Assembly (NCBI GenBank): GCA_965238075.1
Contig: OZ250173.1
Coordinates: 2,560,001-2,624,000 of the forward strand
Reading direction: 5' to 3'
From: Candidatus Entotheonellaceae bacterium
Lineage (GTDB): Bacteria; Tectomicrobia; Entotheonellia; Entotheonellales; Entotheonellaceae
Length of the DNA stretch: 64,000 nt
In this document: positions 21,765 through 50,925 of the stretch, piece by piece
Position numbering within the stretch: position 1 is the first letter of the stretch
Layout: the number at the start of each line of letters is the position of its first letter
Made by a program: the position numbers and the translations under genes
The notes under the pieces: model-generated
What the model was told of the DNA's origin: nothing
Database searches by the model: none
What the model saw: only the letters and a program-made list of their open reading frames with translations

Positions 21765-21829
21765 CTAAAGTGTAGGAGGGAATTTGGAAATCGGGGAGGC
21801 GCAGACGGGTGAATAGCGGGCATGGGACA

Positions 21830-24950: not shown

Positions 24951-27900
24951 GCACGGTCGGCGAATGGGAAATCCTCACCCAGCAACGTGTTGTTGCGTTC
25001 TTCCGCGAGGCACTCGGCTACGACTATCTCGGCCACTGGAAGGATCGCGAGGGCAACAGCAACATCGACAAAATGTTGCTGACCGGCTGGTTGTCCCGCC
25101 AGGGCTACAGCGACAAGATCATCACCAAGGTGCTGTTTGAACTCGGTAAGGCCGCGGCACCCGGCGGCAGCAAGACCCTCTACGACGCCAATCGCGAGGT
25201 CTATGGCCTGCTCCGCTACGGCGTGAAGGTGCAGCCGGACGTGGGCGATCAGAACGTGACTGTCTGGCTGATCGACTGGGCGAACCCCGACAATAACGAC
25301 TTCGCCCTTGCCGAAGAGGTGACGGTTGCCGAGCAGAATACCAAGCGGCCCGACCTCGTGCTCTACGTCAACGGCCTCGCCCTGGGCGTGCTGGAGTTGA
25401 AGCGTTCTACGGTATCGGTGAGCGAGGGTATCCGCCAGAATCTCGACAACCAGAAGAAGACGTTCATCGAGCCGTTCTTCACCACGGTGCAACTCGTGAT
25501 GGCGGGTAACGACACCGAGGGGCTGCGCTACGGCGTGATTGAAACGCCGGAGAAGTACTGGTTGCGTTGGAAGGAAGCCGAAGCCCACCCAGCCGCGGGG
25601 GACAATCCCCTGCTGCGGGAACTGGGCCAACTGTGCGGCAAGGAGCGGCTGCTGGAGATCGTGCACGATTTCGTCGTTTACGACGCCGGCGTCAAGAAGA
25701 TTTGCCGCCATAACCAGTACTTCGGCGTGCGGGCGGCACAAGCGTGTGTGCAGCGCCACGAAGGCGGCATCATCTGGCACACCCAGGGAAGCGGCAAGAG
25801 CCTGAGCATGGTCTGGCTGGCGAAGTGGGTTCGCGAGCACGTGGCCGACGGGCGGGTGCTGATCGTCACCGACCGGACCGAACTGGACGAGCAAATCGAA
25901 AAGGTCTTCAAGGGCGTCAGCGAGGATATCCACCGCACCGGCAGCGGCGCCGATCTGGTGCAAGCGTTGAACACCGGCGAGGAATGGCTGATCTGTTCGC
26001 TGATCCACAAATTCGATGCCTCGGAAGAGATAAGTGAAAAGGATATCGAAACCTACATCGAGGAAATCAGGAATGGCCTGCCCAAGGGGTTCTACGCCAA
26101 GGGCGAAGTCTTCGTCTTCGTGGACGAATGCCACCGCACGCAATCCGGCAAGCTCCATGATGCGATGAAAACGCTGTTGCCGCGGGCGACGCTGGTCGGT
26201 TTCACTGGAACGCCACTCCTCAAGGATGACAAGCGTCGGAGCATTGAGACCTTTGGGCCGTACATCCACACCTACAAGTACGACGAGGCGGTGGATGACG
26301 GGGTGGTGCTGGATCTGCGCTACGAGGCACGTGATATTGACCAGAACCTGACCTCACCGGCCAAGGTCGACCAGTGGTTCGAGCTCAAGACCCAAGGACT
26401 GACCGACGTAGCAAAGGCCCAACTCAAGCAACGGTGGGGCACGCTGCGCAGCGTGCTGAGTGCACGGGACCGGCTGGAAAAGATCGTCGCTGACATCATG
26501 ATGGACATGGCGAGGCGCGACCGCCTCAAGAGCGGCCACGGCAACGCGATGCTGGTTTCCGACAGCATCTACTCGGCGTGCCGCTTCTTCGAGATGTTTC
26601 AGCAGACTGATCTGGCGGGCAAATGCGCCATCGTGACTTCTTACAAGCCCTCCCCGGCGAGCATCAAGGGGGAAGGGGGAAGCGAGGGGCTGACCGAAAG
26701 GCTGCGCCAGTACGACATCTACCGAAGAATGCTTGCGGCGCACTTCGACGAGCCGGAAGAATCGGCCATGCACAAGGTGGAGCGGTTCGAGCGGGAGGTC
26801 AAGAAACGCTTCATTGACGAACCGGGACAGATGAAGCTTCTGATCGTCGTGGACAAACTGCTGACAGGCTTTGACGCGCCGCCGGCGAGCTATCTGTACA
26901 TTGACAAGCCGATGCAAGACCACGGCCTGTTCCAGGCCATCTGCCGGGTCAATCGCCTCGACGGCGAGGACAAGGAATATGGGTATGTCATCGACTACAA
27001 AGACCTGTTCCGATCGTTGGAGCAGTCTGTCAAGGACTACACTGGCGAGGCTTTCGATGGCTACGACAAAGAGGACGTGGAGGGTTTGCTGAAGGACCGG
27101 CTGGCGCAGGGCCGGGAGCGGTTGGAGGAAGCGCGCGAGGCGGTAAAGGCGCTGTGCGAGCCGGTTGAGCCGCCGCGCGATACCGCTGCCTACCTGCGTT
27201 TCTTCTGCGCCGCCGAGAGCGGCAATGCCAGGCAGCTAAAGGCCAACGAACCGAAGCGCGTGACCCTCTATCGGTTGGCCGCTGCCTTCCTGCGAGCTTA
27301 TGCCAATTTGGCGAACGAGATGCGCCAGGCTGGCTATTCTGACGCCGAAGCGCAGCAGATTAAGGCCGAGGTGGACCACTATGAAAAGGTGCGCCAGGAG
27401 GTCAAGCTCGCCAGCGGCGATTACATCGACTTGAAAATGTATGAACCGGCCATGCGGCATCTGCTCGACACATACATTCGGGCCGAAGAGAGCGAGCCAC
27501 TCTCTGCTTTTGACGATATGACGCTGATACAGCTGATCGTTGAGCGTGGCGAAGCAGCGATCGATGCACTACCCGAGGGCATCCGCAAGAACCCCGAAGC
27601 GGTGGCCGAGACGATTGAGAACAACGTCCGGCGGCTCATCATCGACGAGATGGCGGTCAACCCCAAGTACTACGAGAAAATGTCGGCATTGCTGGACGCG
27701 TTGATCCGCCAACGCAAGCAGGAAGCCATGGACTACAAGGCCTACCTGGCCAAGATCGTCGAGTTGACCGGGACGGTCAGTAGGCCGGAGACCCAAACAT
27801 CCTATCCTACGAGTATCCGCAACGGCGCCCTGCGAGCACTTTACGACAATCTGGACGAGCCGGAAGTTTCGGTCGTGCGCGACCCCATGACGCAATATGG

Positions 27901-28099
27901 CGACACGCCGACTTCCGACCCCAAGGAAGAGCGGGCTCTTGCCCTGGATTATGCTATCCGTAGTGTGAAGAAAGCGGACTGGAGAGGAAACAGATTCAAA
28001 GAACGCGAGGTTCGTAACGCCGTCAAGTCAGTGCTCGGCGACGACGAGGGCTTGGTGAGTACGACATTCGAAATCGTGAAGGCACAGCGTGACTATTGA
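24947..28099 (+). CDS. hsdR: Type I RM restriction subunit
   Basis: RPDLVLYVNG..LELK nuclease; HTQGSGKS; DECHR; FTGTP; LLTGFDAP; QAICRVNR. Confidence 0.96.
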   Translation: MSTVGEWEILTQQRVVAFFREALGYDYLGHWKDREGNSNIDKMLLTGWLSRQGYSDKIITKVLFELGKAAAPGGSKTLYDANREVYGLLRYGVKVQPDVGDQNVTVWLIDWANPDNNDFALAEEVTVAEQNTKRPDLVLYVNGLALGVLELKRSTVSVSEGIRQNLDNQKKTFIEPFFTTVQLVMAGNDTEGLRYGVIETPEKYWLRWKEAEAHPAAGDNPLLRELGQLCGKERLLEIVHDFVVYDAGVKKICRHNQYFGVRAAQACVQRHEGGIIWHTQGSGKSLSMVWLAKWVREHVADGRVLIVTDRTELDEQIEKVFKGVSEDIHRTGSGADLVQALNTGEEWLICSLIHKFDASEEISEKDIETYIEEIRNGLPKGFYAKGEVFVFVDECHRTQSGKLHDAMKTLLPRATLVGFTGTPLLKDDKRRSIETFGPYIHTYKYDEAVDDGVVLDLRYEARDIDQNLTSPAKVDQWFELKTQGLTDVAKAQLKQRWGTLRSVLSARDRLEKIVADIMMDMARRDRLKSGHGNAMLVSDSIYSACRFFEMFQQTDLAGKCAIVTSYKPSPASIKGEGGSEGLTERLRQYDIYRRMLAAHFDEPEESAMHKVERFEREVKKRFIDEPGQMKLLIVVDKLLTGFDAPPASYLYIDKPMQDHGLFQAICRVNRLDGEDKEYGYVIDYKDLFRSLEQSVKDYTGEAFDGYDKEDVEGLLKDRLAQGRERLEEAREAVKALCEPVEPPRDTAAYLRFFCAAESGNARQLKANEPKRVTLYRLAAAFLRAYANLANEMRQAGYSDAEAQQIKAEVDHYEKVRQEVKLASGDYIDLKMYEPAMRHLLDTYIRAEESEPLSAFDDMTLIQLIVERGEAAIDALPEGIRKNPEAVAETIENNVRRLIIDEMAVNPKYYEKMSALLDALIRQRKQEAMDYKAYLAKIVELTGTVSRPETQTSYPTSIRNGALRALYDNLDEPEVSVVRDPMTQYGDTPTSDPKEERALALDYAIRSVKKADWRGNRFKEREVRNAVKSVLGDDEGLVSTTFEIVKAQRDY

Positions 28100-28820
28100 G
28101 GATAGAGGCCGCCAAATCGACGTGCGAGGTACAACCGTGGAGGTCGTCCACAGGGACATCAAGAACCTCCACGTGGGTGTCTATCCGCCGAGCGGTCGGG
28201 TGCGGGTGGCCGCGCCGTGGCGCCTTGATGAAGATGCCGTGCGTCTGGCCGTTATTTCACGCCTCGGATGGATTCGTCGTAAACAGGCCGGATTCCAGCA
28301 GCAGGCTCGCCAGTCTCAGCGGGAGTTCGTCACCGGCGAGAGTCATTACGTTGAAGGCCGGCGCTACCGGCTTGGCGTAACCGAACACGATGGCCCGCCA
28401 ACTGTTCGTCTGCTTAACAATACGACGTTAGCGTTAACCGTTCGTCCTGATACCAACCGCGACAAGCGGGAGGCTGTGCTTTACCGATGGTATCGCCACC
28501 GGCTCCGAAGCCGTCTGCCTGCGCTTCTTGCAAAATGGGAACTGAGGGTTGGAACGCGGGGTACTGAGGTGCGCATCAAGAAGATGAAAACCCACTGGGG
28601 AACGTGCAGCACGGATGCCCGCCGTATCTGGCTAAATCTCGAATTGGCGAAGAAACCGGTGTTGTGCCTTGAGTACATCCTGGTGCATGAGATGGTCCAC
28701 CTGATTGAGCGTAATCATACCGATCTGTTTCGACAATTGATGGACAGACTCATGCCGCAGTGGCGCGTTTATCGAGATGAGTTGAATCAGAGCCCACTGG
28801 CACATGAAGCTTGGCGTTGA
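28089..28820 (+). CDS. M48-like / YgjP (DUF45) metalloprotein
   Basis: MKTHWGTC, LEYILVHEMVHL.ERNH; typical position after hsdR. Confidence 0.88.
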   Translation: MTIEDRGRQIDVRGTTVEVVHRDIKNLHVGVYPPSGRVRVAAPWRLDEDAVRLAVISRLGWIRRKQAGFQQQARQSQREFVTGESHYVEGRRYRLGVTEHDGPPTVRLLNNTTLALTVRPDTNRDKREAVLYRWYRHRLRSRLPALLAKWELRVGTRGTEVRIKKMKTHWGTCSTDARRIWLNLELAKKPVLCLEYILVHEMVHLIERNHTDLFRQLMDRLMPQWRVYRDELNQSPLAHEAWR

Positions 28821-29316: not shown

Positions 29317-29522
29317 TAAATCGTGACCTCTACCTGTCGCGTCTCAACAGTCAGAGGAAGGCCTTTTTCTGCGCGTACCTCAAGGCAGAGTGTAATGGCT
29401 TCTTTTATGTTGTCCAACGCCCGGGCTTTGGTCGTTCCCTGACTGACGCAGCCCGGAATTGCGGGGCATTCCACAATCCACATACCATCTTCATCGCGGT
29501 CAACCGTCACATTGAATTTCAT
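29316..29522 (-). CDS. hicB: HicB antitoxin
   Basis: DEDG.WIVECPAIPGCVSQG.T...AL.NIKEAI; ATG 29522 after AAAGAG. Confidence 0.9.
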   Translation of the reverse strand: MKFNVTVDRDEDGMWIVECPAIPGCVSQGTTKARALDNIKEAITLCLEVRAEKGLPLTVETRQVEVTI

Positions 29523-29659
29523 CTCTTTCTTGAAACCTCCGTCGGTTTTGCACCACACCCTTTCCGTTCTTGACGAGCGGTTAGAATTCCCTTTATCTAT
29601 CGGAAAAGAACTCCGAATACAAGAATGCCGCGGCGCGCTGGTTTCTCAGGAGACATGAC

Positions 29660-32317
29660 ATGAACGCCACAAAGCCGATCACAATGACTACGTTGCAGCC
29701 AGCGGGCGCGGTGTTTCATCGCTGCGCCCTGCAAGTGAATCCGCACCCCGACGGCGATGCGCCGTCCCATGCCGCGGCGGTTGTAGCCAAGGCCGTCGAA
29801 CTTGGCGTGTCCGTGCTTGCCGTTAACGGACCCAGCGGTGTGGCGGTGTTCCGCAGCGCGGCCGCGGGTCAGGGTATCATCCTATTTCCGGGATTTGAGT
29901 TGACGTCCGCCGAGGATATTCATGTCCTTTGCATCTACCCACCAGACACCGACGAGGGCCAACTCGAACAGTACCTCGGCCAGCTCGGAGTTGACCGTTT
30001 CGCGTCTTCCGCCGACCCGTCGAGCGTATCGTTCGAGAACGTGCTGACGAGGGTTCGCATCCAGGGCGGCGTCGCGATTGCCGCACATGCGGCGCCCGAC
30101 GGCGGCCTGTTCGACGGCCTGTCGCCCCAGGCGTGGCGCAGCGAGGACCTGCTCGCCGTCCGCATTCCGGGACCCGTCGAGGAACTTCCTGAAGATGTGC
30201 GTCGCATCCTCGAAAACCGGAGCGCGGACTACCGGCGCGTCCATCTCGCGGGCGACAAGCAGGCGGTGGCCGTGATCAACGCAAAGGACGTTACGACCGC
30301 TGCGGACCTCGAACACCCCGCCGCCACCTGCCGGATCAAGATGTCCGAGGTCAGCATCGAGGGCTTGCGGCAGGCGTTTCTTGACCCGGACTCGCGTATC
30401 CGCCTCAGTCGCCAGGACGGCGAAGCGGAAGCCGAGGCCGAGGCGCACACCGCGCTGCTGGCCCTGGCGTGGGAAGGGGGCTTTCTGGACGGCGCCAGCA
30501 TCTCGCTGAACCCGAACCTCAACGTGCTGGTCGGCGGCCACGGCGCCGGCAAGTCAACGATCATCGAAAGCCTGCGCTACGTGCTGGCCCTGGAGCCCGT
30601 CGGCGAAGAGGCGGGCAAGGCCCATCAAGGCATCGTGCGCCACGTGCTGCGCAGCGGCACCAAGGTCTCGCTGCGGGTGCGCTGCTATCGCCCGGCGACG
30701 CGCGAGTATTTGATCGAGCGCACCGTTCCCAACCCGCCCGTGGTCCGTGACGAAAACGGCCTGGTCTCCAGCCTGCTGCCCAGGGACATCCTGCCGCGCG
30801 TCGAGGTGTACGGCCAGCATGAAATCTCGGAGCTCGCCCGCAGCGGCGAGAAGCTCACCCGGTTGCTCGACCGCTTTGCCCAGTTCGACCCGTCGATGCC
30901 CAGGCGCAAGGCGGACCTTCGCCGCGATCTCAGGAAGACACGCGAAGCCCTGTTGGACGTGCAGGCGGAACTGCGGCACATCGAAGAACGGCTGGCGACT
31001 CTGCCCAGCCTGGAAGAGACCCTCGAACGCTTTCGGGAGGTCGGGCTTGAAGACCGCTTGCGCGGGCGCAGCCTGCTGGTGCGCGGCGAGCAGGTGATGG
31101 ACTCCATTCCCGAGCGCCTGCGCACCTTCCGCGACGGCCTGGAAGCCATGCGGCAGGAACTTCCCCTCAATCGCGTGTTCCTGTCACCCGAAGCGCTTGA
31201 GGACCTGCCGGGGCGGGATATCCTCGGCGGTGCGGACCGCGTGCTGGAGCGTCTGAGCAGCGACCTCCAATCCATCGTGCGTCAATTGGACGAAGCCCTG
31301 GCGGGCGCCGACGACGGCATCGCTGAGGTGCGTTCCCGCTGGGACAGGCATCGGCTCGAGGTGCAGAACGCGTACGAAGAAATTCTGCGCGAACTTCAGC
31401 AGGCGGCGGTGGACGGTGAGGAGTTCATCCGCCTGCGGGGGGAGATTGAGGGGCTGCGCCCGCTGCAGGACCGCCAATCGCTGCTGCAGCAGCAGGAAAG
31501 CGAATACCTGAACCGCCGCCGCGCGCTGCTGGCCGAGTGGGAGGACGTCAAGGCCGCAGAGTTCCGCGCCCTCGACCGGGCCGCCCAGAACGTCAGCGGC
31601 AGGCTGACCGGCCGCGTTCAGGTGGAGGTCACGGCCGCGGGCAACCGGGAGCCGCTGGCCGCGCTGCTGCGCAACCGGGTTGGCGGCAACCTCAAGAACA
31701 CGATCGACAAACTGGCGGGTCTGGACACGATGTCTCTGGTCGATCTGGCCGCCGCCTGCCGCGAAGGCGCCGACGCCTTGATCGACGCCTATGGCCTGAC
31801 CCCGGGTCAGGCGCGCAACATCGCCGCGGCCGGGCCGGACATTGCCCTGCGCATCGAAGAACTGGAGTTGCCGCCCACGACCACCATCCGACTCAATACC
31901 GCGCCGCCCGGCGCACCGCCGTCGTGGCAGGCGCTCGACGCGCTCTCGATCGGTCAGAAGGCCACCGCGGTGCTGCTGGTCTTGTTGCTCGAATCCGATG
32001 CGCCGCTGATTCTGGATCAGCCCGAAGGCGACCTTGACAATCGGTCCATTACCGAGGGCATCGTGCCCCGGATGCGTGAGGAAAAACAGCGGCGGCAGTT
32101 CATCTTCTCGACCCACAACGCCAACATCCCGGTGCTCGGCGACGCCGAACTGATCCTCGGGCTGACCGCCTCGGGCGAGTCCGGCGGCGGACAGGGGCGC
32201 ATCGCGCCGGAGCACCTGGGTTCTATTGATACCCAACTGGTGCGCGCGTTGGTGGAGGACATTCTCGAGGGCGGCAAAGACGCCTTTGAGACGAGACGGC
32301 TGAAGTACGGCTTCTGA
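29660..32317 (+). CDS. PHP-like domain + ABC/SMC-type ATPase (TrlF/Ppl-like)
   Basis: N-terminal CALQVN..GFE..HVL..AH; Walker A GGHGAGKST; coiled coil; LSIGQK; LILDQPEGDLDN; STHNANIPVLGDAE. Confidence 0.85.
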   Translation: MNATKPITMTTLQPAGAVFHRCALQVNPHPDGDAPSHAAAVVAKAVELGVSVLAVNGPSGVAVFRSAAAGQGIILFPGFELTSAEDIHVLCIYPPDTDEGQLEQYLGQLGVDRFASSADPSSVSFENVLTRVRIQGGVAIAAHAAPDGGLFDGLSPQAWRSEDLLAVRIPGPVEELPEDVRRILENRSADYRRVHLAGDKQAVAVINAKDVTTAADLEHPAATCRIKMSEVSIEGLRQAFLDPDSRIRLSRQDGEAEAEAEAHTALLALAWEGGFLDGASISLNPNLNVLVGGHGAGKSTIIESLRYVLALEPVGEEAGKAHQGIVRHVLRSGTKVSLRVRCYRPATREYLIERTVPNPPVVRDENGLVSSLLPRDILPRVEVYGQHEISELARSGEKLTRLLDRFAQFDPSMPRRKADLRRDLRKTREALLDVQAELRHIEERLATLPSLEETLERFREVGLEDRLRGRSLLVRGEQVMDSIPERLRTFRDGLEAMRQELPLNRVFLSPEALEDLPGRDILGGADRVLERLSSDLQSIVRQLDEALAGADDGIAEVRSRWDRHRLEVQNAYEEILRELQQAAVDGEEFIRLRGEIEGLRPLQDRQSLLQQQESEYLNRRRALLAEWEDVKAAEFRALDRAAQNVSGRLTGRVQVEVTAAGNREPLAALLRNRVGGNLKNTIDKLAGLDTMSLVDLAAACREGADALIDAYGLTPGQARNIAAAGPDIALRIEELELPPTTTIRLNTAPPGAPPSWQALDALSIGQKATAVLLVLLLESDAPLILDQPEGDLDNRSITEGIVPRMREEKQRRQFIFSTHNANIPVLGDAELILGLTASGESGGGQGRIAPEHLGSIDTQLVRALVEDILEGGKDAFETRRLKYGF

Positions 32318-32332
32318 GAACAAGGAAGAACC

Positions 32333-33040
32333 ATGTGCGGTCGCTTCACCCAGCAACTGACCGGAGGCGAGATTCACGACCTGTACGGTGCGACGCAGCC
32401 AACGCTGCCGATGGAACTGCCACCGCGTTACAACGGTGCGCCGACGCAGGACTTCGCAGCCTGCCGGCTCGATGAGACGGGGCGCCGTGTCGTAACCAGG
32501 TTGCGTTGGGGACTGGTGCCGTTCTGGGCGAAGGATGTCGGGATCGGTGCGCGGTTGATCAACGCACGGGCGGAGACGGTGAGCGATAAGCCGGCGTACC
32601 GGGCGGCCTTTCGCGCCCGCCGGTGTCTGGTGCCGGCCAATGGCTGGTTCGAGTGGCAGCGCGCCGGGCGTAGCAAGCAGCCCTGGTTTGTCGCTTTGAC
32701 GGATGGCTCGCCGGTGTCGTTCGCGGCGCTGTGGGAATGCTGGGACAAGGCGGGCGACGGTCTGGAAACCTTCACCATCATCACCACGGAAGCCTGCGAG
32801 AGTCTGACGGATATTCATCACCGCCAGCCCGCGATCATCCACCCCGACCATGTTGCCGATTGGCTTGATCCGGCCTCGCGGCCCGATCAACTCCTTGATC
32901 TGGTGCGTGAACCTTGCGCCGGCCCCTTCGAGAAACGCCCCCTCAGTACCCGGGTGAACAGCGTTGCCAATAACGACGTAAGCATCCTGAGCCCCGCGCG
33001 GCTGCACCGCACTTCGGAGCCAGGGCTGTTTGACCGATAG
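32333..33040 (+). CDS. SRAP / YedK abasic-site protecting protein
   Basis: N-terminal MCGRF, RYN.APTQ, WGLVP.W, INARAET, RRCLVPA.GWFEW, IHHRQP. Confidence 0.93.
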   Translation: MCGRFTQQLTGGEIHDLYGATQPTLPMELPPRYNGAPTQDFAACRLDETGRRVVTRLRWGLVPFWAKDVGIGARLINARAETVSDKPAYRAAFRARRCLVPANGWFEWQRAGRSKQPWFVALTDGSPVSFAALWECWDKAGDGLETFTIITTEACESLTDIHHRQPAIIHPDHVADWLDPASRPDQLLDLVREPCAGPFEKRPLSTRVNSVANNDVSILSPARLHRTSEPGLFDR

Positions 33041-33055: not shown

Positions 33056-33352
33056 TTACTCGCCCGTGTTGGTCAGTTCAAGCCGCAAGCGCTTACCGCA
33101 TACAGTCGCTGCTTTTTGAAGGGTGTGAAGCGTAACAGAGGAATTGCTCGGATCTAACAAACGGTTCAGGGCCGCTCGGCTCGTTTGCATGCGGGCCGCC
33201 ATGGCCGTTCGAGTCAAGCCCTTCTCCTGCAGGGCACGCTTGATCTGCTCGGCCAGCAATTCTTTAATCGCCTGTTCTTCGCAGGCTTCGAGAAGGCCCT
33301 CCTTAGCTAAAAAGTCATCGAAGGAGGATCCGACACGGGGGTTCTGGCTCAT
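33056..33352 (-). CDS. XRE-type HTH antitoxin
   Basis: GSSFDDFL..EG...AMAARMQTSRAALNRLLDP.N.SVTLHTL. Confidence 0.88.
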   Translation of the reverse strand: MSQNPRVGSSFDDFLAKEGLLEACEEQAIKELLAEQIKRALQEKGLTRTAMAARMQTSRAALNRLLDPSNSSVTLHTLQKAATVCGKRLRLELTNTGE

Positions 33353-33699
33353 GGTCCAACTTCCTTCTGATCGCGTTCGATTTCCATTTTGCGCGCTCGG
33401 GCGAGATCGAGGTCCCGCTTTGGTGTCTTCTGGGTCTTCTTGATGAAGCCGTGCAGTAAGATCATTTGACCCTCAACGATGCAGAAGAATACCCGGGCGG
33501 TGCGCTGTGACGGTAATTCGCTACGAACTTCCCACAGACCTTGGCCGAGAGCGCGACAGACGGGCAATCCAAGCGGCCAACCGAACTCAACTTTTCGAAT
33601 ATCCTTGCCGATGACTTGGCGCTCGCTCTGGGCTAGGCGCTTCAGCCATTCGCGAACAGGTTCATGGCCGTTGGTGTTGCGATAAAACCGTGTAGGCAA
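33349..33699 (-). CDS. RelE/ParE (Gp49-like) toxin
   Basis: EPVREWL...GWPLGLPVCR.L..GLWEVRS...LLHGFIKKTQKTP; upstream GTATC-N6-GATAC palindrome. Confidence 0.88.
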   Translation of the reverse strand: MPTRFYRNTNGHEPVREWLKRLAQSERQVIGKDIRKVEFGWPLGLPVCRALGQGLWEVRSELPSQRTARVFFCIVEGQMILLHGFIKKTQKTPKRDLDLARARKMEIERDQKEVGP

Positions 33700-33825
33700 T
33701 TTCTTGATGAAGGACCCGAAGCAAGTGTATCTAAAATGATACGGTCAATCAATTGTGAAGTGTGACGATTGTTTCTGCTGGAAGGGCGCGACCCGTCCGG
33801 TGGGAACACCTGGGTAGAGAGAAGT

Positions 33826-35631: not shown

Positions 35632-35817
35632 TCAGCCTTCATGTCGGCGTTGTCGGTCTGTCGGATTACGCTGCGCTAGAGCACTTTCGGATCCCAACGG
35701 CTTATGGTCACCCCGGCGAAAGAACGTCACCCCGGACCCCGGATCAAGTCCGGGGCAGGCTTTGATCCGGGGCCGGAGTCCAGGAGTTCGCCTGGGATAA
35801 GAGCCTGCCCGGGACTA

Positions 35818-35932
35818 AAGTGCGTTCACGTTGATACCAAGAATTTTCGCGGAAGCTTGCCCAGTTGTAACCAAAGCGCCCTCACAGGGACCTCGACTCC
35901 GAAAAATTCTTCATCTCAAACGAAACGCACAT
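35818..35932 (+). mobile_element. 115-bp MITE, left copy
   Basis: TA|AAGTGCGTT...AACGCACAT|TA terminal inverted repeats; inverted homolog at 38695-38809. Confidence 0.85.
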
Positions 35933-37227
35933 TAAAAATCCAGGCACCCCTGCTTACCAAAGCCATAAAAGTCATGCAGATGGGTAACGCCGTATCTGCC
36001 GTGGATCGGCGGCTTTTCCTCGTACCAATTTGGGTCAGGCTGGCGCAGCCCGAGAACGCGCTCCACCTTTGGAAAGGTGACCTCGACGCCGCCGGTGCCC
36101 GTGCTCACCGCTGACACGATCTCCGGCACGGACATCAGCAACGGCGGCGCATTGCCATTTTCGTTGTCTTCCTCTTCGGTCATGAGGACCGTATCCACCC
36201 CCACCCGTTCGAGTGCCTGAACCGTGAGAACCGTTTCCACAAAGCGCTGACCGCGCTGATTGGTAGTCACAATGGCCCCGTTGGCGCCCAGGGCAGAGGC
36301 CATCTGCGCCGCCCGATTTGCCATGAGTTGTTTTTCGGCTTGGGCTTCCCAATTGCTGCGTACCACGATGCAACCGACAAAATTGAAGTCCTGGCCATGA
36401 CGCGAGCACAGGTAGGGCACGATCGTTTCCATGATGGGCCAGGTAAAATGTTCCATGTAGGTGCCGAAAACAGCGCCATCGATCATCTCCGTGGGTCGCA
36501 GAAGCCAGGGTTCGGTGAGGCGTCCGATACCGTACACGTTGGTGCCCAGGCTGGTACGTGGACCAAACCGGTACTCCGCCGAAGCCAAGGCCGGGACAAA
36601 CACGATATTGGGTAAGGCGTTGTCACGATAGTCAAGATCGTACGTGGTGATCTCGTGCGGTTCAAAGCCTCGTGTAGTCTCCGCCAGGCGGTCGTTGAGC
36701 TTCAGCATGGCGGCATTGCTCGCCCGGTTCCAGTCATCGGCATAGGATTCCTGGTGCGGTTCCATTTGCAAACAGAGGTTGATGGTGTGGGCAAAAGGGG
36801 TTACGGCACCCGGTCCCGACATATCGATAAAGGTGATGTCGCTGCGGCCCTCGACGGATGTGGCCCCCCACCAGTGCGCCCCGTCGGGGTTGAAACCGGG
36901 CATTTCGGAGCACGCGATGAGGGTCATACCGCCCAGGCGATGGGTGCGGCCTTGCCCCACTGTGGTCACGTCGCGCCCGGAGATACCGGGATAGGTGACC
37001 CCCGGACCGGATACTTTGACCTTTGGCTCAACGATGTCTCGGATCTGCACAATGCGCACCGAGTCCCCGGGGCGGGTCACGTCAATGTCTGCCCAGGCGA
37101 TATAGGGGTCTTCCATGACCAAGGCGAGAAGCTCGTCTTTGTTGACGCTCAGGACGCCGTCTTGCCAATGCGTCTGCGTTCCGAACACGATGTCACGGAC
37201 TGGAAACGTGCCGACTTCAAGTTTCAT
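35932..37227 (-). CDS. Glycine/sarcosine/betaine reductase component B proprotein-like (GrdE-like)
   Basis: MKLEVGTFPVRDIVFG, DIVEPKVK, G.GRTHRL.G, IDMSGPGA, P.EMIDGA, AVSTG; ATGA overlap with the upstream grdB stop. Confidence 0.85.
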   Translation of the reverse strand: MKLEVGTFPVRDIVFGTQTHWQDGVLSVNKDELLALVMEDPYIAWADIDVTRPGDSVRIVQIRDIVEPKVKVSGPGVTYPGISGRDVTTVGQGRTHRLGGMTLIACSEMPGFNPDGAHWWGATSVEGRSDITFIDMSGPGAVTPFAHTINLCLQMEPHQESYADDWNRASNAAMLKLNDRLAETTRGFEPHEITTYDLDYRDNALPNIVFVPALASAEYRFGPRTSLGTNVYGIGRLTEPWLLRPTEMIDGAVFGTYMEHFTWPIMETIVPYLCSRHGQDFNFVGCIVVRSNWEAQAEKQLMANRAAQMASALGANGAIVTTNQRGQRFVETVLTVQALERVGVDTVLMTEEEDNENGNAPPLLMSVPEIVSAVSTGTGGVEVTFPKVERVLGLRQPDPNWYEEKPPIHGRYGVTHLHDFYGFGKQGCLDF

Positions 37228-38567
37228 CGTGAGACGTCCTCCAGCACCGTCTGGTCGGGCTCGAAGAGAGTTGGTATGGATACGGGCGTGGTCAGGGCGT
37301 TTAGGGCAGTCGTGACGATGCGCGCTCTGAGTTCGTGGTCTCTGTCCTCGGATAAAGCCGGGTCCCCGCACACATGAGGCACACGCACGCCTCGAACGAC
37401 ACGGCTGGCGCCGACCGAGAGTGGAATGGCCGGCATAGCCGTCATCATACCCACAGGAATTCCTGCCCTCTCAATTTCCTTGGCTAACGTTGCACCGCAA
37501 CGGTTACAGCTGCCTCACGTGGCCACCAGCAAAACGCCATCCACGTGGTTCGCGGTCAGTTCTGCGGCAATCTCACCGCCCATGCGTCTGGCAGCGCTTA
37601 CCGCCGTAGCGTTGCCGGTGGTCGAGAAAAACTGTGGGTAGACATGCTTGATGTGCCCAGCATCTTCGAGATAACGCACGGTACTCAAGGGCATGGCGTA
37701 ATTGGGATCCTTGGTGTTGAGGATGAGGGTGCCGAAGCCACCGTGTACCGACTCCCATTCTTCCACAGTCAGGGAGCTGACTTGCTCGATGTCGTATTTG
37801 AAAAACTGTTCCGCCTTAGAACCCACCAAGCGGTCCCGGTTACCGCGAGGCACCAAGCCACCGCTGGAGACCAGCCCGATGACGGCATCTTTCAGGTCGC
37901 GTAACGGTGGAGCGGGTGTGACGTCGTCGTATCCGGTGAGGCACATTTCAGAGTTGTAAGGTTTTCCCGCCATGCGGGCCAGCAACATATCGGCTGCTCT
38001 TCCATAACCGTACTTCTCGTGCATCACCTCTTGGCGTCTGCCAGTAGGGACATAACCCGCAGCGACCGCCGGCCCCAACTCTGTACCGCGGACCCGTTTA
38101 AGGGCCAGCGTAGCCATCTGGCGCAATATCGCAACCATCTCGGTGCTGTCCGTGCCAGTAGATACGGCCAGTACATCGCTCCGGTACGTGAGTATTCCCG
38201 CGTTATCAGGATGCATGCCCGTAACGGCAGGGATGTTTCGAGCGGTGGCGATACGACACACCTCCGCGCAAGCCAGCCCGTATCGTCCGGCGTCAAAAGC
38301 CGGACCCGCGATGACCACGTCGGGCCTAAGTTCGTCAAGATACCTTTCCACCGCGGGTTTGGCAGCGTCCAACTCTTCAGTAAAATAGTTGTCACCCGCA
38401 ATGAGGGTCCCAACAATCGTCGCTTGGTCACCCAAGGCGCCCTGGAGCGCACGACCGGGTCCTACCGGTCCCGGTTTGACCTGGACCGGCTCGTACGCCT
38501 GTGCTTCGCCACCAATGCCGCCGAAAAACTGGTTCAAGTAGTGCACGACTCGGATTGCTTCTGCCAT
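37224..38567 (-). CDS. grdB: Glycine/betaine/sarcosine reductase selenoprotein B (Sec at UGA 37515-37517), 447 aa
   Basis: VVHYLNQFFGGIGGE, AGPAFDAGRYG..C; frame reads LLVAT-UGA-GSCNRCGA and stays open to 37224. Confidence 0.92.
37482..37514 (-). promoter_or_regulatory. Bacterial SECIS hairpin of grdB
   Basis: UGA GGCAGCUG UAA C CGUUGC GGU GCAACG UUA GCC: perfect 6-bp upper stem with a G-first loop. Confidence 0.75.
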
Positions 38568-38694
38568 CAGCCTCTCCTCCGTTCTACGGTAGGTGTTTAT
38601 GGTTGACGTCACGCCTGTACCGCGGATGCCTTGGCATCGCTTCAGCGCTATTTTAAGCCAGCGCCGAAAGGGATCAATCAAATCCACAACTCTA

Positions 38695-38809
38695 ACGTGC
38701 GTTTCGTTTGAGAGTAAGAATTTTTTGGTGTTGAGGGCCATGCGAGGGCGTTTTGGCTACAACTGGCCAAGCTTCTGCGAAAATTCCTGGTATCAAAGTG
38801 AACGCACTT
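38695..38809 (-). mobile_element. 115-bp MITE, right copy (inverted)
   Basis: TA|ACGTGCGTT...AACGCACTT|TA; colinear with 35818-35932. Confidence 0.85.
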
Positions 38810-38924
38810 TAGATCCGGGTTCACTGGATTCCGGGGCCTGCCCCGGACCTGATCCGGGGTCAAGCCCGGAATGACGCCTCTTGGATGGTTCATTCAGAAC
38901 CGAAAAAGCCCTAATTCTATCTGC

Positions 38925-41430: not shown

Positions 41431-41649
41431 TGCCCTGCCATGGTGTGTCCTTTCCGTTAAGGATTTGCGTGAGGGTGTGCGGCTCCGGGTTCGGGAGCGG
41501 CGACAGTATAGCGTAATTCAGGTTGGCCGCATAAAGCGCCGTGGCCGTTAAGCAAAGCGTTGTTTTTGCTTGACTCACCTGGGGCAGAGGCATAGTGTGG
41601 CGACATCATACCGGTTCATGGTTCTTGGAATTGTGTAGGGAGGGTTAAG

Positions 41650-42900
41650 ATGGCAAAGCCAGTCAGTCACGTGGTAACACGACCGGGAAGGCGACAGGGT
41701 GATCCGGACGTCACGATCCCTGTTGCCGAAGAACTCGCCACCGTACCTGGAATTCCTCTCAAGGAAGAAGACCTCAGCTTTTACAGCCGGGTGTATCCTC
41801 AGGAAACGCAAAACATCGAGAAAGCCGCCGACCGCGAGTGGGTATGGACGGTCTACAGCGACGAGATGGCCGCCTACCGGCGCTATCACGATGAAGTCAG
41901 CGAGCCGCTCATCGACGCTGCCGCGGTTTCCGGCGATCTCGAGCCGACCGGTACGCCGGACCCGGAGCTGAACGTCACCGAGGCCATTCGCAGCAAAGCC
42001 CGTGAGCTGGGATTCAACGAGGCTGGGTTCACTAAGCACGACAAGCGCTTCACCTACACCCGCAAGAAACGCTGGATCAAATACCCGCACGCGATTTGCC
42101 TGGCCCTGGAACAGGATTACGTGCAGACGCAATCGATCCCCAGCATGGACGCGGAGTACGCCCACTTCGGCACCTACGAGATGGAAGGCGCGTTCCTGCT
42201 GGACCTGGCCGACTACATTCGCTCCCTGGGCTATCACGCCCAGGTGCACAGCCCCAATGACAACAGCGCTCCGTACATTCCCATGTTCGTCAGCGCGGGG
42301 CTGGGCCAACTCGGCGCCAATGGCCAGTTGCTGTCGCCGCACTTCGGGTCGCGCGCCCGTTTGGCGATGATCACCACCGACGCGCCGGTGACGCACGACG
42401 AGCCCGTCGATTACGGCATTCACGAATTCTGCCAGCGTTGCCAAGTGTGCGCCAACCGCTGCCCGGGCCGCGCCATCGTGCGCGACAAGGTGTGGTGGCG
42501 CGGTGTCGAAAAGAACAAGCTGATCTACGAACGCTGCCGTCCGGTGATGGCCCGCTACGAAGGCTGTGCCGTGTGCATGAAGACCTGCCCGATTCAGCGC
42601 TTCGGCATGCCCGCCGTCATGGAACACTTTGTCGAGACCGGTGAGGTGCTCGGCAAGGGCACGCACCTGCTTGAGGGCTATACCTTCAAGGAAAAGGGCT
42701 ATCACGGCCCCGGCGAGTTGCCGCAGTTTGACCGGCAGTTCTTCGAAATCCCGCACGGGCGCAAGGAAGACTGGCTGTTCGAGCAGTTCAAGGAACGCCT
42801 GATGAAGGAAGGGGTCCCCGAGGAGGGCGGCCTGCAAGAGTTCGCGCAGCAGGTCAAGGTCATCCTGGATCAGGGGAACTCGACCATCGGCGATGAGTAG
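41650..42900 (+). CDS. Reductive dehalogenase-like cobalamin/2x[4Fe-4S] protein without TAT signal
   Basis: LADYIRSLGYHA, AGLGQLGANG.L.SP.FGSR.RL..ITTD.P, CQRCQVCANRCP, C-x9-CAVCMKTCP. Confidence 0.8.
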   Translation: MAKPVSHVVTRPGRRQGDPDVTIPVAEELATVPGIPLKEEDLSFYSRVYPQETQNIEKAADREWVWTVYSDEMAAYRRYHDEVSEPLIDAAAVSGDLEPTGTPDPELNVTEAIRSKARELGFNEAGFTKHDKRFTYTRKKRWIKYPHAICLALEQDYVQTQSIPSMDAEYAHFGTYEMEGAFLLDLADYIRSLGYHAQVHSPNDNSAPYIPMFVSAGLGQLGANGQLLSPHFGSRARLAMITTDAPVTHDEPVDYGIHEFCQRCQVCANRCPGRAIVRDKVWWRGVEKNKLIYERCRPVMARYEGCAVCMKTCPIQRFGMPAVMEHFVETGEVLGKGTHLLEGYTFKEKGYHGPGELPQFDRQFFEIPHGRKEDWLFEQFKERLMKEGVPEEGGLQEFAQQVKVILDQGNSTIGDE

Positions 42901-42934
42901 GTTTCAACTGACGATTTGACGAATGAAGTAACGT

Positions 42935-42970
42935 ACGGGGCCAGCGCGGTTAGCTGGCCCCGTTGTGCTT
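42935..42970 (+). terminator. Probable intrinsic terminator
   Basis: ACGGGGCCAGC-N7-GCTGGCCCCGT followed by TGTGCTT. Confidence 0.5.
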
Positions 42971-42994
42971 CCGGCATCAGAAGGAGGGAAGGGG

Positions 42995-43180
42995 ATGTTT
43001 GAGAAGGACCATCTGGACGCCTTGTTTGCCGAACTGGACAGCGAATGGCGCGGCTCGGTCGATTTCGACCAACTAAGCCGCGATGCGCACCTCGGCATCG
43101 CCCTCAGCGACGCCGGCCGGCCCCTGGAGGACCGCATTGATTCCCGTGTGATCGCGCTTATCGACAAGCACAAGCCGTAA
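42995..43180 (+). CDS. Small hypothetical protein
   Basis: Strong RBS (GGAAGGGG), host-like codon usage. Confidence 0.65.
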   Translation: MFEKDHLDALFAELDSEWRGSVDFDQLSRDAHLGIALSDAGRPLEDRIDSRVIALIDKHKP

Positions 43181-43275
43181 TGCCACCGCGCAAGAGCGCT
43201 TCGAGGTTCAGTCTCTTCGTTCTATATCGTTAGGCGTAGAGAGGGCTGCAACTCGGACGTGTAAAAGGCGGGGGC

Positions 43276-43500
43276 ATGATGGACCTTCAGCCTGTAACCC
43301 TGGCTCAACTGCTGCAACCGGTCGTGACGGCTGGCATCGGCTTGGCACAATGTGTCCTGATATGGACTGGCCTGCGACAGATGCGAGCAGCCTCGGCAGC
43401 AAGGGACCGGCAACTGGATGCCACGGACCGAAAGACAGATGCCCAACTGGGAGCGCTATCGGTTCTCATTGAGCGGACCGGCGGCAGGGGAACGGTCTGA
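43276..43500 (+). CDS. Small membrane-anchored hypothetical protein
   Basis: One hydrophobic helix then a short coiled coil. Confidence 0.55.
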   Translation: MMDLQPVTLAQLLQPVVTAGIGLAQCVLIWTGLRQMRAASAARDRQLDATDRKTDAQLGALSVLIERTGGRGTV

Positions 43501-43619
43501 ATGGATTAAAGCCTTCTTTTCTCGACTTCGAAGCGGGTCGCCTCAGGCCGGAATTTCAACATCGTCCTTCTTACCCTTTCAACCGCGAATGGAGATGACA
43601 CCCTCTTAGCCTGTGGTCC

Positions 43620-44081
43620 TTACGTTTGGAGTTCCCCCAGACATGCCTGCCAGCGGCGCGACAACTCTTCGAGGCACTGCTGCGTCGAATCCGCCCGTCC
43701 GTCACCGTGCTGAAAGACCGACGCGCTGTGGTCGGTGAGGCCTCGTACTGCGGTACGCAGACGGGCCTGGGCCTGTTCCATCTGGTCGGCCAACTGGGCC
43801 ACGGTGCGTCCGGTCAGGCGGCCAACGGCGCGGGCGTCCATGTCGTCGGCTGAAGCATGGATGCGGACCGGCGCGCCGCCCGCGGCTACCGATTCCATGC
43901 CGTCGGCGGCCGTTGCGCTCCACCACACGAGCTGGCACAGTGTTTCGCGCGGCCCATACGTCCCCATTTTGATTCTGCCCTCGGTTTCCAACTGACGAAG
44001 CTGTGTCAGTCCCGTCTCAACCTGTTTATCCAACGCTGTAATCAGGTCGTCAATCGATAGCGTCTCTGTCATGTGAAGCAT
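43620..44081 (-). CDS. DinB/YfiT-like helical protein
   Basis: YGPRETLCQLVWW pattern; RBS GGAGGGG; metal His residues not evident. Confidence 0.55.
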   Translation of the reverse strand: MLHMTETLSIDDLITALDKQVETGLTQLRQLETEGRIKMGTYGPRETLCQLVWWSATAADGMESVAAGGAPVRIHASADDMDARAVGRLTGRTVAQLADQMEQAQARLRTAVRGLTDHSASVFQHGDGRADSTQQCLEELSRRWQACLGELQT

Positions 44082-44327
44082 CCCCTCCTAAGGTCCCGTC
44101 ATTGATCGTTTACCAGCATGCGGAAAGCCTGATAGTGCGTTGTTATAGACGCGGCATGGGCGGGTGTCAACAAAGCCGGACGTGTGAAAAGGTGGCAATA
44201 TGTGTAGACATTCACAAACGGATGGGCTATAGAAAACGCGTGTTTCTGACATGAATTCAGGCGCTGATTCGCCCGCCGGAATGGGGGTCGACAGGCCGCC
44301 ACGCCGGACACTAGAGGAGGCAAAACT

Positions 44328-44684
44328 GTGGAAGAGCGAACGATACTGACGGCACTGGGGAATATCGTGGATTCTCTTGGGACGTTGTCGCTCGTTGCGA
44401 CAGCGCCGGACGATCCCTTGGCGCTGCCGGAGCCTCCAGGCCCGGAGCAGATCGCGGCGTATGAGACGCACGTCAGCGCGGTCAAAGACCAAGTGGATGC
44501 GAGCTACCACTCCCTGCTGGCCATGTCGGTGCGGGATTACCAGGCGGGCTACGCCGACCGCGCGGGGCTGTACCTGCTGGAGTTTCTGGGCAAACTCAAG
44601 GAAGAGCCCGACTATGACCGGACCTTCTCCGCCGAGGGCCAGCGCACCCTGGCCACGTGTGTCGCCGACCTGCGCGAGCTTTAA
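44328..44684 (+). CDS. Hypothetical protein
   Basis: RBS GAGGAGG, GC-rich third positions. Confidence 0.7.
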   Translation: MEERTILTALGNIVDSLGTLSLVATAPDDPLALPEPPGPEQIAAYETHVSAVKDQVDASYHSLLAMSVRDYQAGYADRAGLYLLEFLGKLKEEPDYDRTFSAEGQRTLATCVADLREL

Positions 44685-44750
44685 GGGTGTCCACCAACAT
44701 CGAACAAGACAACGTTTGACAAACCTGCCATCAATCAACACGTTGCGGCT

Positions 44751-44804
44751 ATGATCAAGAGCATCAAGCACAAGGCGCTCCGCAACTACTGGAGATGTCC
44801 CTGA
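44751..44804 (+). pseudogene. N-terminal remnant of a HigB (RelE-family) toxin
   Basis: MIKSIKHKALRNYW then unrelated sequence and stop; upstream TTGACA within an imperfect palindrome. Confidence 0.65.
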
Positions 44805-44914
44805 ACGCATACGGATGTCTTAGAGCGGTTTTCGCGCCTATATGGGGATATCCGCAGCGGTGTAAGGCGTCGGACAAAGACGTGCACCCGAGCGGCCCTG
44901 CGCCTGCGTTGGCG

Positions 44915-45016
44915 TAACCCCCCAACCCCCCCTTGTCAGGGGGGCTTTGGAGGTGTTGTCCTTGTGCCCTTGCGGTCTTCAGAAATTCCCCCCTGATAAG
45001 GGGGGCAAGGGGGTTC
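44915..45016. repeat. CCCCCCTT-N-AGGGGGG palindromic repeat pair
   Basis: TAACCCCCCAACCCCCCTTGTCAGGGGGG is the reverse complement of ~6171-6199. Confidence 0.75.
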
Positions 45017-45218
45017 TATCCCCGACAACAAATCCCTGGCCGAAAAGGCGCGTTAGAGCCGCAAAAACCCAACCCCCGCAGAGCCCATGTGCTGGACGAG
45101 GTCCTGCAAAACAAACGCCGCGGTCACGAACGATCTCGATGCGGCGCATCACAACATGACGCGTAGATGGGCCAGACATACGAACGCAAACCGCTCTATG
45201 GCCTGGGAGGTGAGATCA

Positions 45219-45660
45219 TGCTTTCCAAATCCGCCGCACGGGCGTTCTTTCTGATCGGCACCGTCGGGTTTTCGGTCATTTTCCTGCTGCTGACGCTCGA
45301 CACCATCCGTCGCGTGCCGGATCAGACCAACGCCGCTAACCTGACGCCGTAGGCGATTGCGGGCAAGCACCTGTGGGACAAGAACAACTGCATGGGCTGC
45401 CACACCATCCTGGGCGAGGGCGCCTATTACGCGCCGGAGCTGACCAAGGTATACGAACGGCGCGGGCCGGCGTTCATCAAGGCGATGTTGCGCGACCCGG
45501 AGGCCATGTATCCCGGGCAGCGGCGCATGGTGAAGTACGACTTCACGGACGAGGAAATGGAGGCCATGGTCGCCTTCCTCAAGTGGATCGGCGAGATGGA
45601 CCTCAACGGCTTTCCGCCCGAGCCCACCTTGCTGCCATGGCGGTGCAGACGCCGGTGGCC
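45219..45660 (+). pseudogene. norC: Nitric oxide reductase cytochrome c subunit, disrupted
   Basis: MLSKSAARAFF...LTP-TAG(45350-52)-AIAGKHLWDKNNCMGCHTILGEGAYYAPELTKV..RRM. Confidence 0.85.
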
Positions 45661-46456
45661 AAGGATGCGGTGGCCGCTATTCTGCGCAAGCACGCCCGTG
45701 TGATGTGCGAGGTGCGCCTGCTGCTCGACAAGCTGCGGCATCAACGCCGGTTGCGGAACCGGCAAACCGAGGGGACGGACATTGACGTTGACGCGGTCGT
45801 GGACCGCTACGCCACGGTGCGCGGCGGTCAGCGGCCCGACGACCGGCTGTACCTGGCGCAGCGGCGGCAGCGGCGTGATCTGGTGACCCTGCTGCTGATC
45901 GACATGAGCGCTTCGACCGACGCCTGGATTGAGGGCTCACGGGTACTCGACATCGCCACGGAATCGGCGCTGGTGCTGGGGGAGGTGTTGTCGCAGTGGG
46001 GGGATCGGGTCGGCATGGCCGGGTTCTACAGCAATACCCGGCGTGACTGCCGATTCGTCATGCTGAAGCCGTTTGACGCCGACTGGCACCGCAGCCGAGC
46101 CGCTGCTCACGGGTCTCGAACCGACGGGCTACACCCGCATCGGCCCCGCCGTGCGCCATGGCACCGCGCTGCTGCAGGGCCAGCGGTCCGCCAGGAAGCT
46201 GTTGCTGTTGCTGTTGCTCAGCGACGGCAAGCCGATCGATTACGACCGCTATGAGGGGCGCTACGGCATCGCCGACATTCGCCAGGCCATTCGGGAAGCG
46301 CACCACAGCCGCATCCACACCTACGCCCTGGCCATCGACGTGCAGGCGAAGCTTTACCTGCCGCAGATGTTCGGCAGCGGTTCGTTCCGCATCCTGCCGC
46401 ACCCGACGCATCTGGTGCGCGGCTTGTCCGAGGTGTACGGTCAATTGGCGCGTTGA
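45660..46456 (+). pseudogene. norD: NorD VWA C-terminal fragment, frameshifted near 46095
   Basis: GTDIDVDAVV, DRLY, LLIDMSAST, YTRIGPAVRH, SDGKPIDYDRYEGRYGIAD across two frames. Confidence 0.82.
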
Positions 46457-50363: not shown

Positions 50364-50654
50364 TTGCGCTGGACGTGGGACGACGCCAAGAACCGCGTCA
50401 ATAAACGGAAGCATCGCCTCAGCTTCGAGACGGCGCAATTCGTATTCGATGACCCGCTGTCGGCGCACCGCCCGGATCTGGGTTCGGACGAAGAACGATG
50501 GCACACCATCGGTATGATCAGCGGCGTGGTCGTGATCGTGGCGCATACATGGCCCGAACCGCAACCTGGAAGCCATGTCGAAGTGGGTCGTATCATCAGT
50601 GCTCGGAAAGCCACGACGCATGAAAGGAGAGCCTATGAAGAAGGGAGTTACTAA
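50364..50654 (+). CDS. brnT: BrnT toxin
   Basis: WDDAKNRVNKRKHRLSFE.A..VF.DP, EERW, RIISARKAT.HER. Confidence 0.9.
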   Translation: MRWTWDDAKNRVNKRKHRLSFETAQFVFDDPLSAHRPDLGSDEERWHTIGMISGVVVIVAHTWPEPQPGSHVEVGRIISARKATTHERRAYEEGSY

Positions 50655-50925
50655 AAAACTCACTCAGGAACAAAAGGCGGAGGTCCGGACGCTTGCGAAC
50701 CTTCCCGACGAGGCGATCGATACCAGCGACGTGCCTGAGATTCTGGATTGGTCCGGTGCTAGGCGCGGTCTCCTGTACCGGCCGGTCAAGCAACAGATCA
50801 CCCTGCGGCTGGATGCCGACGTGGTGTCATGGTTCAAAGCAAACGTTCCGAACGGCCGGGGCTACCAGACCGAGATCAACCGCGTGCTTCGCGAGCATGC
50901 TCGACGAGCTTTGAGTCAGGCGTAG
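50635..50925 (+). CDS. brnA: BrnA antitoxin
   Basis: IDTSDVPE, KQQITLRLDADVV.WFK, GYQTEINRVLR. Confidence 0.9.
   Translation: MKKGVTKKLTQEQKAEVRTLANLPDEAIDTSDVPEILDWSGARRGLLYRPVKQQITLRLDADVVSWFKANVPNGRGYQTEINRVLREHARRALSQA

Follow-up and report, generated by a model that had tools for sequence, protein, structure and literature searches.

Pairs of MITEs, or miniature inverted-repeat transposable elements, that move genes have been described mainly with antibiotic-resistance cargo in clinical Proteobacteria, going by the accounts drawn on here. In Acinetobacter, two copies of one 439-bp MITE enclose an integron as a transposase-free cargo, and insertion of the whole unit has been inferred from its flanks (PMC3934969). 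The TIME-COMPs are comparable, being paired non-autonomous miniature elements that mobilise the DNA between them with a transposase supplied in trans (PMC4133298, PMC13367494). Elements of the IS630 family insert into TA and duplicate it, and the title of a 1991 paper cited in the same source has an IS630-associated composite transposon preferring the TA in 5′-CTAG-3′ (PMC2170065). The 64-kb stretch of DNA analysed here (the window, to which all coordinates refer unless a locus is named) carries a unit that recalls each of these systems. At 35818-38809, inside a duplicated TA, two inverted 115-bp MITEs enclose a grdB-like selenoprotein gene and a grdE-like gene, and this 2,992-bp unit is probably a composite, non-autonomous transposon.

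The two MITE copies share the layout of TA, 115 bp and TA (35816-35934 and 38693-38811). A repeat search recovers them as inverted arms of 127 nt (35808-35934 and 38693-38819) that are 87% complementary across a spacer of 2758 nt, while blastn aligns the left and right copies over 115 nt at 87.8% identity (E-value 3e-29). Each copy also has its own imperfect terminal inverted repeat with 32-nt arms (75%), and all four MITE ends match GTGCGTTNNNNTTGANANNANGAATTTT (20 fixed bases) with 0 mismatches, a pattern for which shuffles of the window expect 0.00 occurrences. Folded as single-stranded DNA, each MITE forms a long hairpin, with z-scores of -3.77 for the left copy and -4.22 for the right. 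Neither has coding capacity, there being no open reading frame (ORF) of at least 60 amino acids confined to the 115 bp. The original prediction of two inverted 115-bp MITEs around grdB-grdE was therefore correct, both copies being complete and flanked by TA.

Removal of 35818-38811 rejoins the outer flanks into a match to GCCTGCCCCGGACNNGATCCGGGG, the pattern of a repetitive extragenic palindrome (REP)-like family, with 2 mismatches in 22 specified positions and with exact spacing. Three or fewer mismatches to this pattern were obtained only from boundary shifts that preserve length, and random joins of window positions gave a REP match spanning the join in 85 of 200000 trials. The target was the TA of a CTAG, located within the loop of the palindrome, and a copy of that TA stands at either outer end of the whole unit (35816-35817 and 38810-38811). 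On the inner sides of the MITEs lie the grdE stop codon and the leader of the operon, both without REP halves, so that separate insertion of the MITEs into two REPs is excluded. The MITE-cargo-MITE unit arrived as a single insertion, in the interval between a gene for an HpcH-type aldolase and one for a luciferase-like monooxygenase. It had been proposed that excision would restore a member of a repeat seen elsewhere in the window and that a TA at CTAG had been duplicated around the whole unit, and both proposals hold, with the mismatches noted above and with three intact copies of the repeat in the window.

The REP-like palindrome family GCCTGCCCCGGACNNGATCCGGGG is intergenic. Its intact copies in the window are located at 6350-6373 (plus strand), 35737-35760 (minus strand) and 38836-38859 (plus strand), while shuffles expect 0.00.

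Table 1. Features of the MITE-bounded unit and of the insertion site (coordinates of the window).
Feature	Coordinates	Strand	Basis
REP-like palindrome, split, left half GCCTGCCCGGGAC	35803..35815	+	sequence; in-silico rejoining
Outer TA on the left, one copy of the whole unit's target-site duplication	35816..35817	.	
Left MITE, 115 bp, ~30-nt terminal inverted repeats, no ORF	35818..35932	+	
Inner TA of left MITE; supplies bases 1 and 2 of the grdE stop codon (minus strand)	35933..35934	.	
grdE-like gene, 431 aa + stop	35932..37227	-	PF09338
grdB-like selenoprotein B gene, 447 aa + stop	37224..38567	-	PF07355, TIGR01918
Leader within cargo, 125 nt	38568..38692	-	sequence; consensus scan
Inner TA of right MITE	38693..38694	.	
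Right MITE, 115 bp, 87% identical to the left MITE and in inverted orientation to it	38695..38809	-	
Outer TA, right copy of the target-site duplication	38810..38811	.	
REP-like palindrome, split, right half GATCCGGGTTC	38812..38822	+	sequence; in-silico rejoining
REP-like copy, intact, in the same intergenic cluster as the insertion	35737..35760	-	0 mismatches
REP-like copy, intact, in the same intergenic cluster as the insertion	38836..38859	+	0 mismatches

The cargo between the MITEs amounts to 2,758 bp, read on the minus strand. At its grdE end the fit is to the base, with the stop codon TAA (35934-35932) made up of the inner TA of the left MITE and the terminal A of that MITE, so that the earlier claim of a stop codon shared with the inner TA can be read directly in the sequence. 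The native C-terminus of GrdE (...QGCLDF) is kept; 26 of 28 homologues inspected end in ...[LV]D[FY], with P0027 and P0030 carrying 2-3 extra residues. The claim that the MITEs bracket grdB-grdE exactly thus stands at the grdE end and fails at the grdB end, where a 125-nt leader (38568-38692) separates the gene from the right MITE. Within this leader, a ribosome-binding site (GGAGGAG) stands upstream of the ATG, and TTGATC-16-TAAAAT (38677-38650) is sigma-70-like, the latter as a consensus match only.

The 115-bp element is a real MITE family. The end pattern was scanned in 185,579 species genomes (596 Gb) for exact matches only, by which diverged ends would be missed, and this gave eight loci in five genomes. 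Seven homologous copies of the MITE (blastn; nhmmer E-values 1e-19 to 7e-40) are present in six loci of three genomes, all of them Ca. Tectimicrobiota or Ca. Entotheonella, and the original prediction had regarded the lack of any other copy as fatal to its proposal. These are three full-length copies in a Ca. Tectimicrobiota metagenome-assembled genome (MAG; loci L001, L002 and L007), one full-length (L008) and one truncated copy (L006) in Ca. Entotheonella sp. OZ244252.1, and two degenerate ones located in the tuf-nusG interval of another Ca. Entotheonella MAG (L005, 1929-2032 and 2282-2397). MITE copies from different Tectomicrobia genomes are 80-92% identical. TA is found at 12 of 12 flanks of the six full-length MITEs (both window copies, L001, L002, L007 and L008), and the complete targets are CTAG in three of five cases (window composite, L001 and L002), with CTAA in L008 and TTAG in L007. 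The left window MITE is 92% identical to L001/L002 but only 87% identical to the right window MITE, which argues that the flanking copies are independent members of the family and not the product of a local duplication.

It is worth mentioning that the MITE of L007 (1997-2114) adjoins rpoC, upstream of rpsG, a core-gene neighbourhood of the Ca. Tectimicrobiota MAG. Two further loci of the scan were rejected as family members. For L004 (Gastranaerophilales) there is the pattern match alone, and by chance about one match to 20 fixed bases is expected across both strands of 596 Gb. In L003 (Caldilineaceae) there is just an end-like stretch of 31-37 nt with no partner end; this solo stretch (1991-2034) is without a partner within 4 kb and sits some 700 nt away from the gene for an IS3-type (rve) integrase, which is the sole transposase-type match among 26 ORFs from the loci with the MITE pattern.

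Part of the same cassette is found in Ca. Entotheonella sp. OZ244252.1, where L006 1-2068 corresponds to window 37930-35863 at 95.3% DNA identity without gaps. The shared stretch comprises part of grdB with its TGA, the whole of grdE, the junction of stop codon and MITE, and 68 nt of the MITE on its inner side. In L006 the grdE stop codon has become TGA in place of TAA, and the two grdE products are 95.6% identical in amino acid sequence. The presence of the same grdE/MITE junction in both indicates that it predates the split of the window and L006 cassettes. In L006 the MITE ends at about position 47, and the sequence beyond is unrelated to the window flank and encodes a MoxR-like ATPase with 38-67% identity (tblastx segments) to a window copy 12 kb off. 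Of the same cassette at other loci, which the original prediction had named as a check, L006 shows the grdB-grdE-MITE junction with a different outer flank; the MITE there is truncated, and the sequence covered by L006 begins within grdB.

The composition of the cargo is foreign to the window. GC content at third codon positions (GC3) is 0.65 for grdB and 0.71 for grdE, the lowest among the local genes, in comparison to 0.84 and 0.87 for the flanking genes and 0.81 and 0.84 for two other window genes, in agreement with the original observation that the cargo is more AT-rich at third positions than its neighbours. The L006 cassette has a GC3 of 0.73 and two other genes of OZ244252.1 have 0.56 and 0.69. 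On this comparison, the cargo looks to be at home in a lower-GC genome of the Entotheonella type and to have arrived recently in the window. The 710-aa acetate-CoA ligase of the window has its best named matches in Ca. Tectimicrobiota, Tectomicrobia and Entotheonella (81-83%), with others up to 93%, and on these matches the window belongs to a Tectomicrobia-like lineage. The closest relatives of the GrdE-like protein (P0003 and P0004) are 99% and 97% identical, while the nearest named relatives of the cargo are MAG proteins of Chloroflexota (SAR202, Dehalococcoidia) and Acidobacteriota, those of GrdE being from Dehalococcoidia/SAR202 (67-71%), Chloroflexota (61%) and one partial Acidobacteriota sequence (82%). 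A distant blastn search of a plasmid collection with 35700-38920 as query gave neither the MITE nor the cassette, the only match being one of 64 nt to grdH of Enterococcus gilvus.

The cargo is predicted to be a substrate-specific protein B module of a glycine/sarcosine/betaine-type reductase (Grd). GrdBE, GrdFG and GrdHI are the substrate-specific protein B modules of this enzyme group in amino-acid-fermenting Clostridia. The grdB-like gene has an in-frame TGA (37517-37515) corresponding to U351 in the motif VATUGSCNRCG (UxxCxxC), and overlaps the grdE-like gene by ATGA. Its product matches PF07355 (379.5 bits) and, across the TGA and over the full profile (1-431 of 431), the NCBIfam model TIGR01918 with 408.6 bits (cut-off 65.45). 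The grdE-like product matches PF09338 (252.8 bits) and is a putative component B subunit of the alpha/beta type of a Grd-family reductase. Against the NCBIfam equivalog and exception models, the GrdB-like protein scores 427.6 for GrdF (cut-off 800), 368.3 for GrdB (602.2) and 360.9 for GrdH (775), and the GrdE-like protein scores 192.4 bits for GrdG (780). All of these are far below the cut-offs and no substrate can be assigned by model.

Evidence for decoding of the TGA as selenocysteine (Sec) comes from comparison between genomes. Substitutions between window and L006 number 6/2/29 at first, second and third codon positions in the available part of grdB and 10/10/38 in grdE, and in the 294 nt from the TGA onward they number 2/1/17, a third-position bias downstream of the TGA which argues that the frame is read through it. 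The comparison indicates purifying selection on the cargo together with a conserved Sec codon. Of the GrdB relatives listed, 114 of 120 are 343-357 aa long, and all 17 of this 350-aa class with inspected ends stop at ...LLVAT, directly before the Sec position. A search of the whole window with Rfam at the gathering threshold returned a tRNA-Asn only and no SECIS match. For its function the cargo is predicted to depend on a host that provides Sec insertion, GrdA, GrdCD and thioredoxin. Sec genes have been reported for Entotheonella (PMC11703216), and another paper (PMC12858407) mentions homologues of SelA and SelB within one gene cluster.

Alignment of 21 proteins from the GrdE-like clade (window 35935-37227) shows no cysteine that is invariant or at least 90% conserved. 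In classical GrdE, the pyruvoyl group is formed by cleavage at a cysteine. If this rule holds, proteins of this clade may either remain unprocessed, as GrdI does, or rely on a different residue. A sequence search of the PDB gave no relative of GrdB, and the weak SH3-domain matches of GrdE (E-values 2e-4 to 2e-3) were treated as spurious.

A series of events that would account for the locus can be put forward. In a donor genome with a lower GC content, a grdB(Sec)-grdE operon would have received two 115-bp MITEs in independent insertions, one on each side. One of them would have hit the TA of the grdE stop codon, where the terminal A of the MITE would have regenerated TAA, and the other would have inserted upstream of grdB, at a distance of 125 nt. 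A transposase acting in trans would then have used the two outermost inverted repeats and moved MITE, cargo and MITE as one piece to a REP-like palindrome on the chromosome of an Entotheonella-related Tectomicrobia bacterium, entering at the TA of the CTAG in the palindrome's loop. Presumed in this scheme are the involvement of an IS630 transposase, the sequence in which the events took place, the donor genome and the role of the cargo in its host, as well as mobilisation in trans.

Three other explanations of the locus are weaker than that of a composite transposon. A single MITE may have been resident in the REP loop and have been replaced by an incoming MITE-grdBE-MITE segment through homologous recombination or gene conversion, which is considered unlikely. 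The homology that this would use does exist, as seen from the 80-92% identity among the Tectomicrobia MITEs, no transposase was found in the window or at the MITE loci, and such an exchange would leave the outer junctions looking as they are observed. The inverted orientation of the MITEs, however, would restrict one of the crossovers to terminal repeats of about 32 nt matching at 75%. Moreover, the right and the left MITE both have an outer end of the 'AAGTGCGTTCAC' type; two outer ends of this one type fit a composite transposon and do not fit a single resident element, which has two different ends.

The same property of the ends bears on an assembly chimera, in which the 3 kb would come from a co-occurring, lower-GC Entotheonella-like genome and have been stitched in at shared repeats. 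The GC3 of the cargo (0.65-0.71) is indeed nearer to that of the Entotheonella loci (0.56-0.73) than to that of the window genes (0.81-0.87), and the relatives are all metagenome-assembled genomes. A misjoin induced by repeats would nevertheless cross inside the repeat and would need a resident copy with two differing ends, whereas the joins here are at the exact outer ends of complete, TA-flanked elements and the flanks restore a palindrome to the base. With the grdE/MITE junction recurring in an independent chromosome-level assembly (OZ244252.1), a chimera is judged very unlikely. It is also conceivable that grdBE is native to the locus and received two unrelated MITE insertions without ever moving as a unit, as MITEs of this family do insert beside housekeeping genes elsewhere (tuf-nusG in L005 and rpoC in L007). 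Such an origin is scarcely credible, as the halves of a single REP lie on the outer sides at a distance of exactly the unit and one TA, the inner sides at the grdE stop codon and the leader are free of REP sequence, and the GC3 of the cargo is the lowest of the local genes.

A number of points nonetheless weigh against a composite transposon moved by an IS630-type enzyme. No transposase of any family was found in the window by a Pfam scan of 80 ORF translations, nor beside the homologous MITE copies (19 ORFs at six loci), and the exact-match scan of the species genomes found no paired matching ends about 1 kb apart. The assignment to a putative IS630/Tc1-mariner (Stowaway-like) type draws on the TA duplication and the CTAG preference alone. 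With no transposase in the window or at the MITE loci and no autonomous element with exact ends, both this assignment and present-day mobility remain presumptive, and any activity today is likewise conjectural. In the 64-kb window there is no third copy of the MITE by blastn, and a six-copy nhmmer profile at E-values up to 1 gave only 5.5-bit noise. The REP pattern was not found in the eight other loci with the MITE pattern (Tectomicrobia and others). The only other cassette seen, that of L006, carries a truncated MITE, and the exact-match scan has no end-pattern match where its second MITE should lie. The empty site is known by in-silico excision only, and should the window be a metagenome assembly, its four junctions rest on assembled sequence alone. 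As regards the cargo, a hairpin starts 3 nt after the UGA, with a stability no better than that of shuffles (z-scores +0.54 and -0.13), so that the comparative evidence and not the fold carries the Sec call. Genes for grdA, grdC, grdD, trx and sel were not found among the 80 ORF translations of the window, and the module would therefore depend on genes elsewhere in the genome.

A more far-reaching possibility, regarded as doubtful, is that the composite is an active plug-in transposon, with pairs of TA-duplicating MITEs shuttling Grd protein B modules between co-resident sponge symbionts (Tectomicrobia and possibly SAR202 Chloroflexota). If this were true, docking would be scarless, the terminal A of the MITE rebuilding the TAA stop codon, and hosts that own Sec, GrdA and GrdCD would gain new reductive substrates in a single transposition step.

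Other features were identified in the window. Behind a tRNA-Asn gene (9520-9595) come some 23 kb of genes of accessory appearance, and the region 9520-33040 resembles a tRNA-associated genomic or defence island. The accessory stretch includes a 1,525-aa Fn3/Calx-beta protein (10280-14857), a DUF7380/DUF4209 protein (23052-24947), a YgjP-like peptidase (28080-28817) and a type I restriction-modification set, namely hsdM (18602-21046), hsdS (21776-23065) and hsdR (24830-28099). An AAA-ATPase/SRAP pair is partly duplicated (16716-17874 with 29554-30727 at 90-98%, and 15151-15552 with 32251-32783 at 80-92%). The 1.2-kb direct repeats, which are nearly identical, stand on either side of the type I restriction-modification block as if it had been inserted or swapped by recombination. 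Toxin-antitoxin-type genes are also present (29319-29645, 33059-33744 and 50536-50925), these being a HicB-like antitoxin, a Gp49-like/HTH pair and a BrnA-like antitoxin, the last of which lies directly upstream of a MoxR-VWA ATPase gene (50926-52989). A run of ORFs at 41596-46456 has coding-like GC3 (0.72-0.89) and either no Pfam family or sub-threshold matches to Fer4_7, DUF58 and VWA.

With respect to the literature, no IS630-type MITE composite is described in the titles and opening lines of abstracts among the open-access matches listed, and the passages seen of a MITE review (PMC10969869) contain none on MITE-bounded or IS630 composites. Tn6645 was considered as a MITE-bounded precedent and set aside, being bounded by copies of ISAba3 according to its description (PMC6382973). 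In the open-access literature, no paper was found for Entotheonella with glycine reductase, only irrelevant papers for sponge symbionts with glycine reductase, and none containing 'SAR202' among the matches listed for SAR202 with Grd reductases.

Mobilisation of genes by MITE pairs is thus already known, and what is new here is the TA-duplicating element family, the Sec-dependent metabolic cargo and the host. Derivation from Tn3 entails replicative transposition and 5-bp duplications. The TIME-COMPs are derived from Tn3 (PMC4133298, PMC13367494), whereas the TA duplication and CTAG target of the window unit point to a cut-and-paste type such as IS630/Tc1-mariner. The unit is similar to the IS630 family and its composite in its TA duplication, and in CTAG for the window composite and two of four solo MITEs with readable flanks (PMC2170065). 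However, IS630 elements carry their own DDE transposase, while both ends of the window unit are 115-bp non-coding elements for which no cognate insertion sequence was found. Its defined ends, target and size provide a concrete, testable substrate for finding the cognate transposase.

Like the clostridial GrdBE, GrdFG and GrdHI modules, the cargo combines a UxxCxxC selenoprotein B with a PF09338 partner (PMC4056300); unlike them, it scores below the NCBIfam equivalog and exception cut-offs, has the order B then E with ATGA coupling, and is without grdA, grdC, grdD or trx nearby. It draws attention to a Grd-like protein B clade without assigned substrate in marine Chloroflexota and Tectomicrobia. 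The Acinetobacter case differs in its longer MITE family and its resistance integron, carried on a plasmid in a clinical or sewage host (PMC3934969), whereas the window unit consists of a 115-bp TA-duplicating MITE around a metabolic selenoenzyme operon on the chromosome of an uncultivated host of the Tectomicrobia type. The same mechanism would now be represented in an uncultivated, natural-product-rich symbiont lineage, with a metabolic cargo that functions only in a host decoding UGA as selenocysteine. The traces left by the event can be read base by base: a duplicated TA, CTAG as the target, a palindrome restored on excision and a stop codon rebuilt with the terminal A of the MITE.

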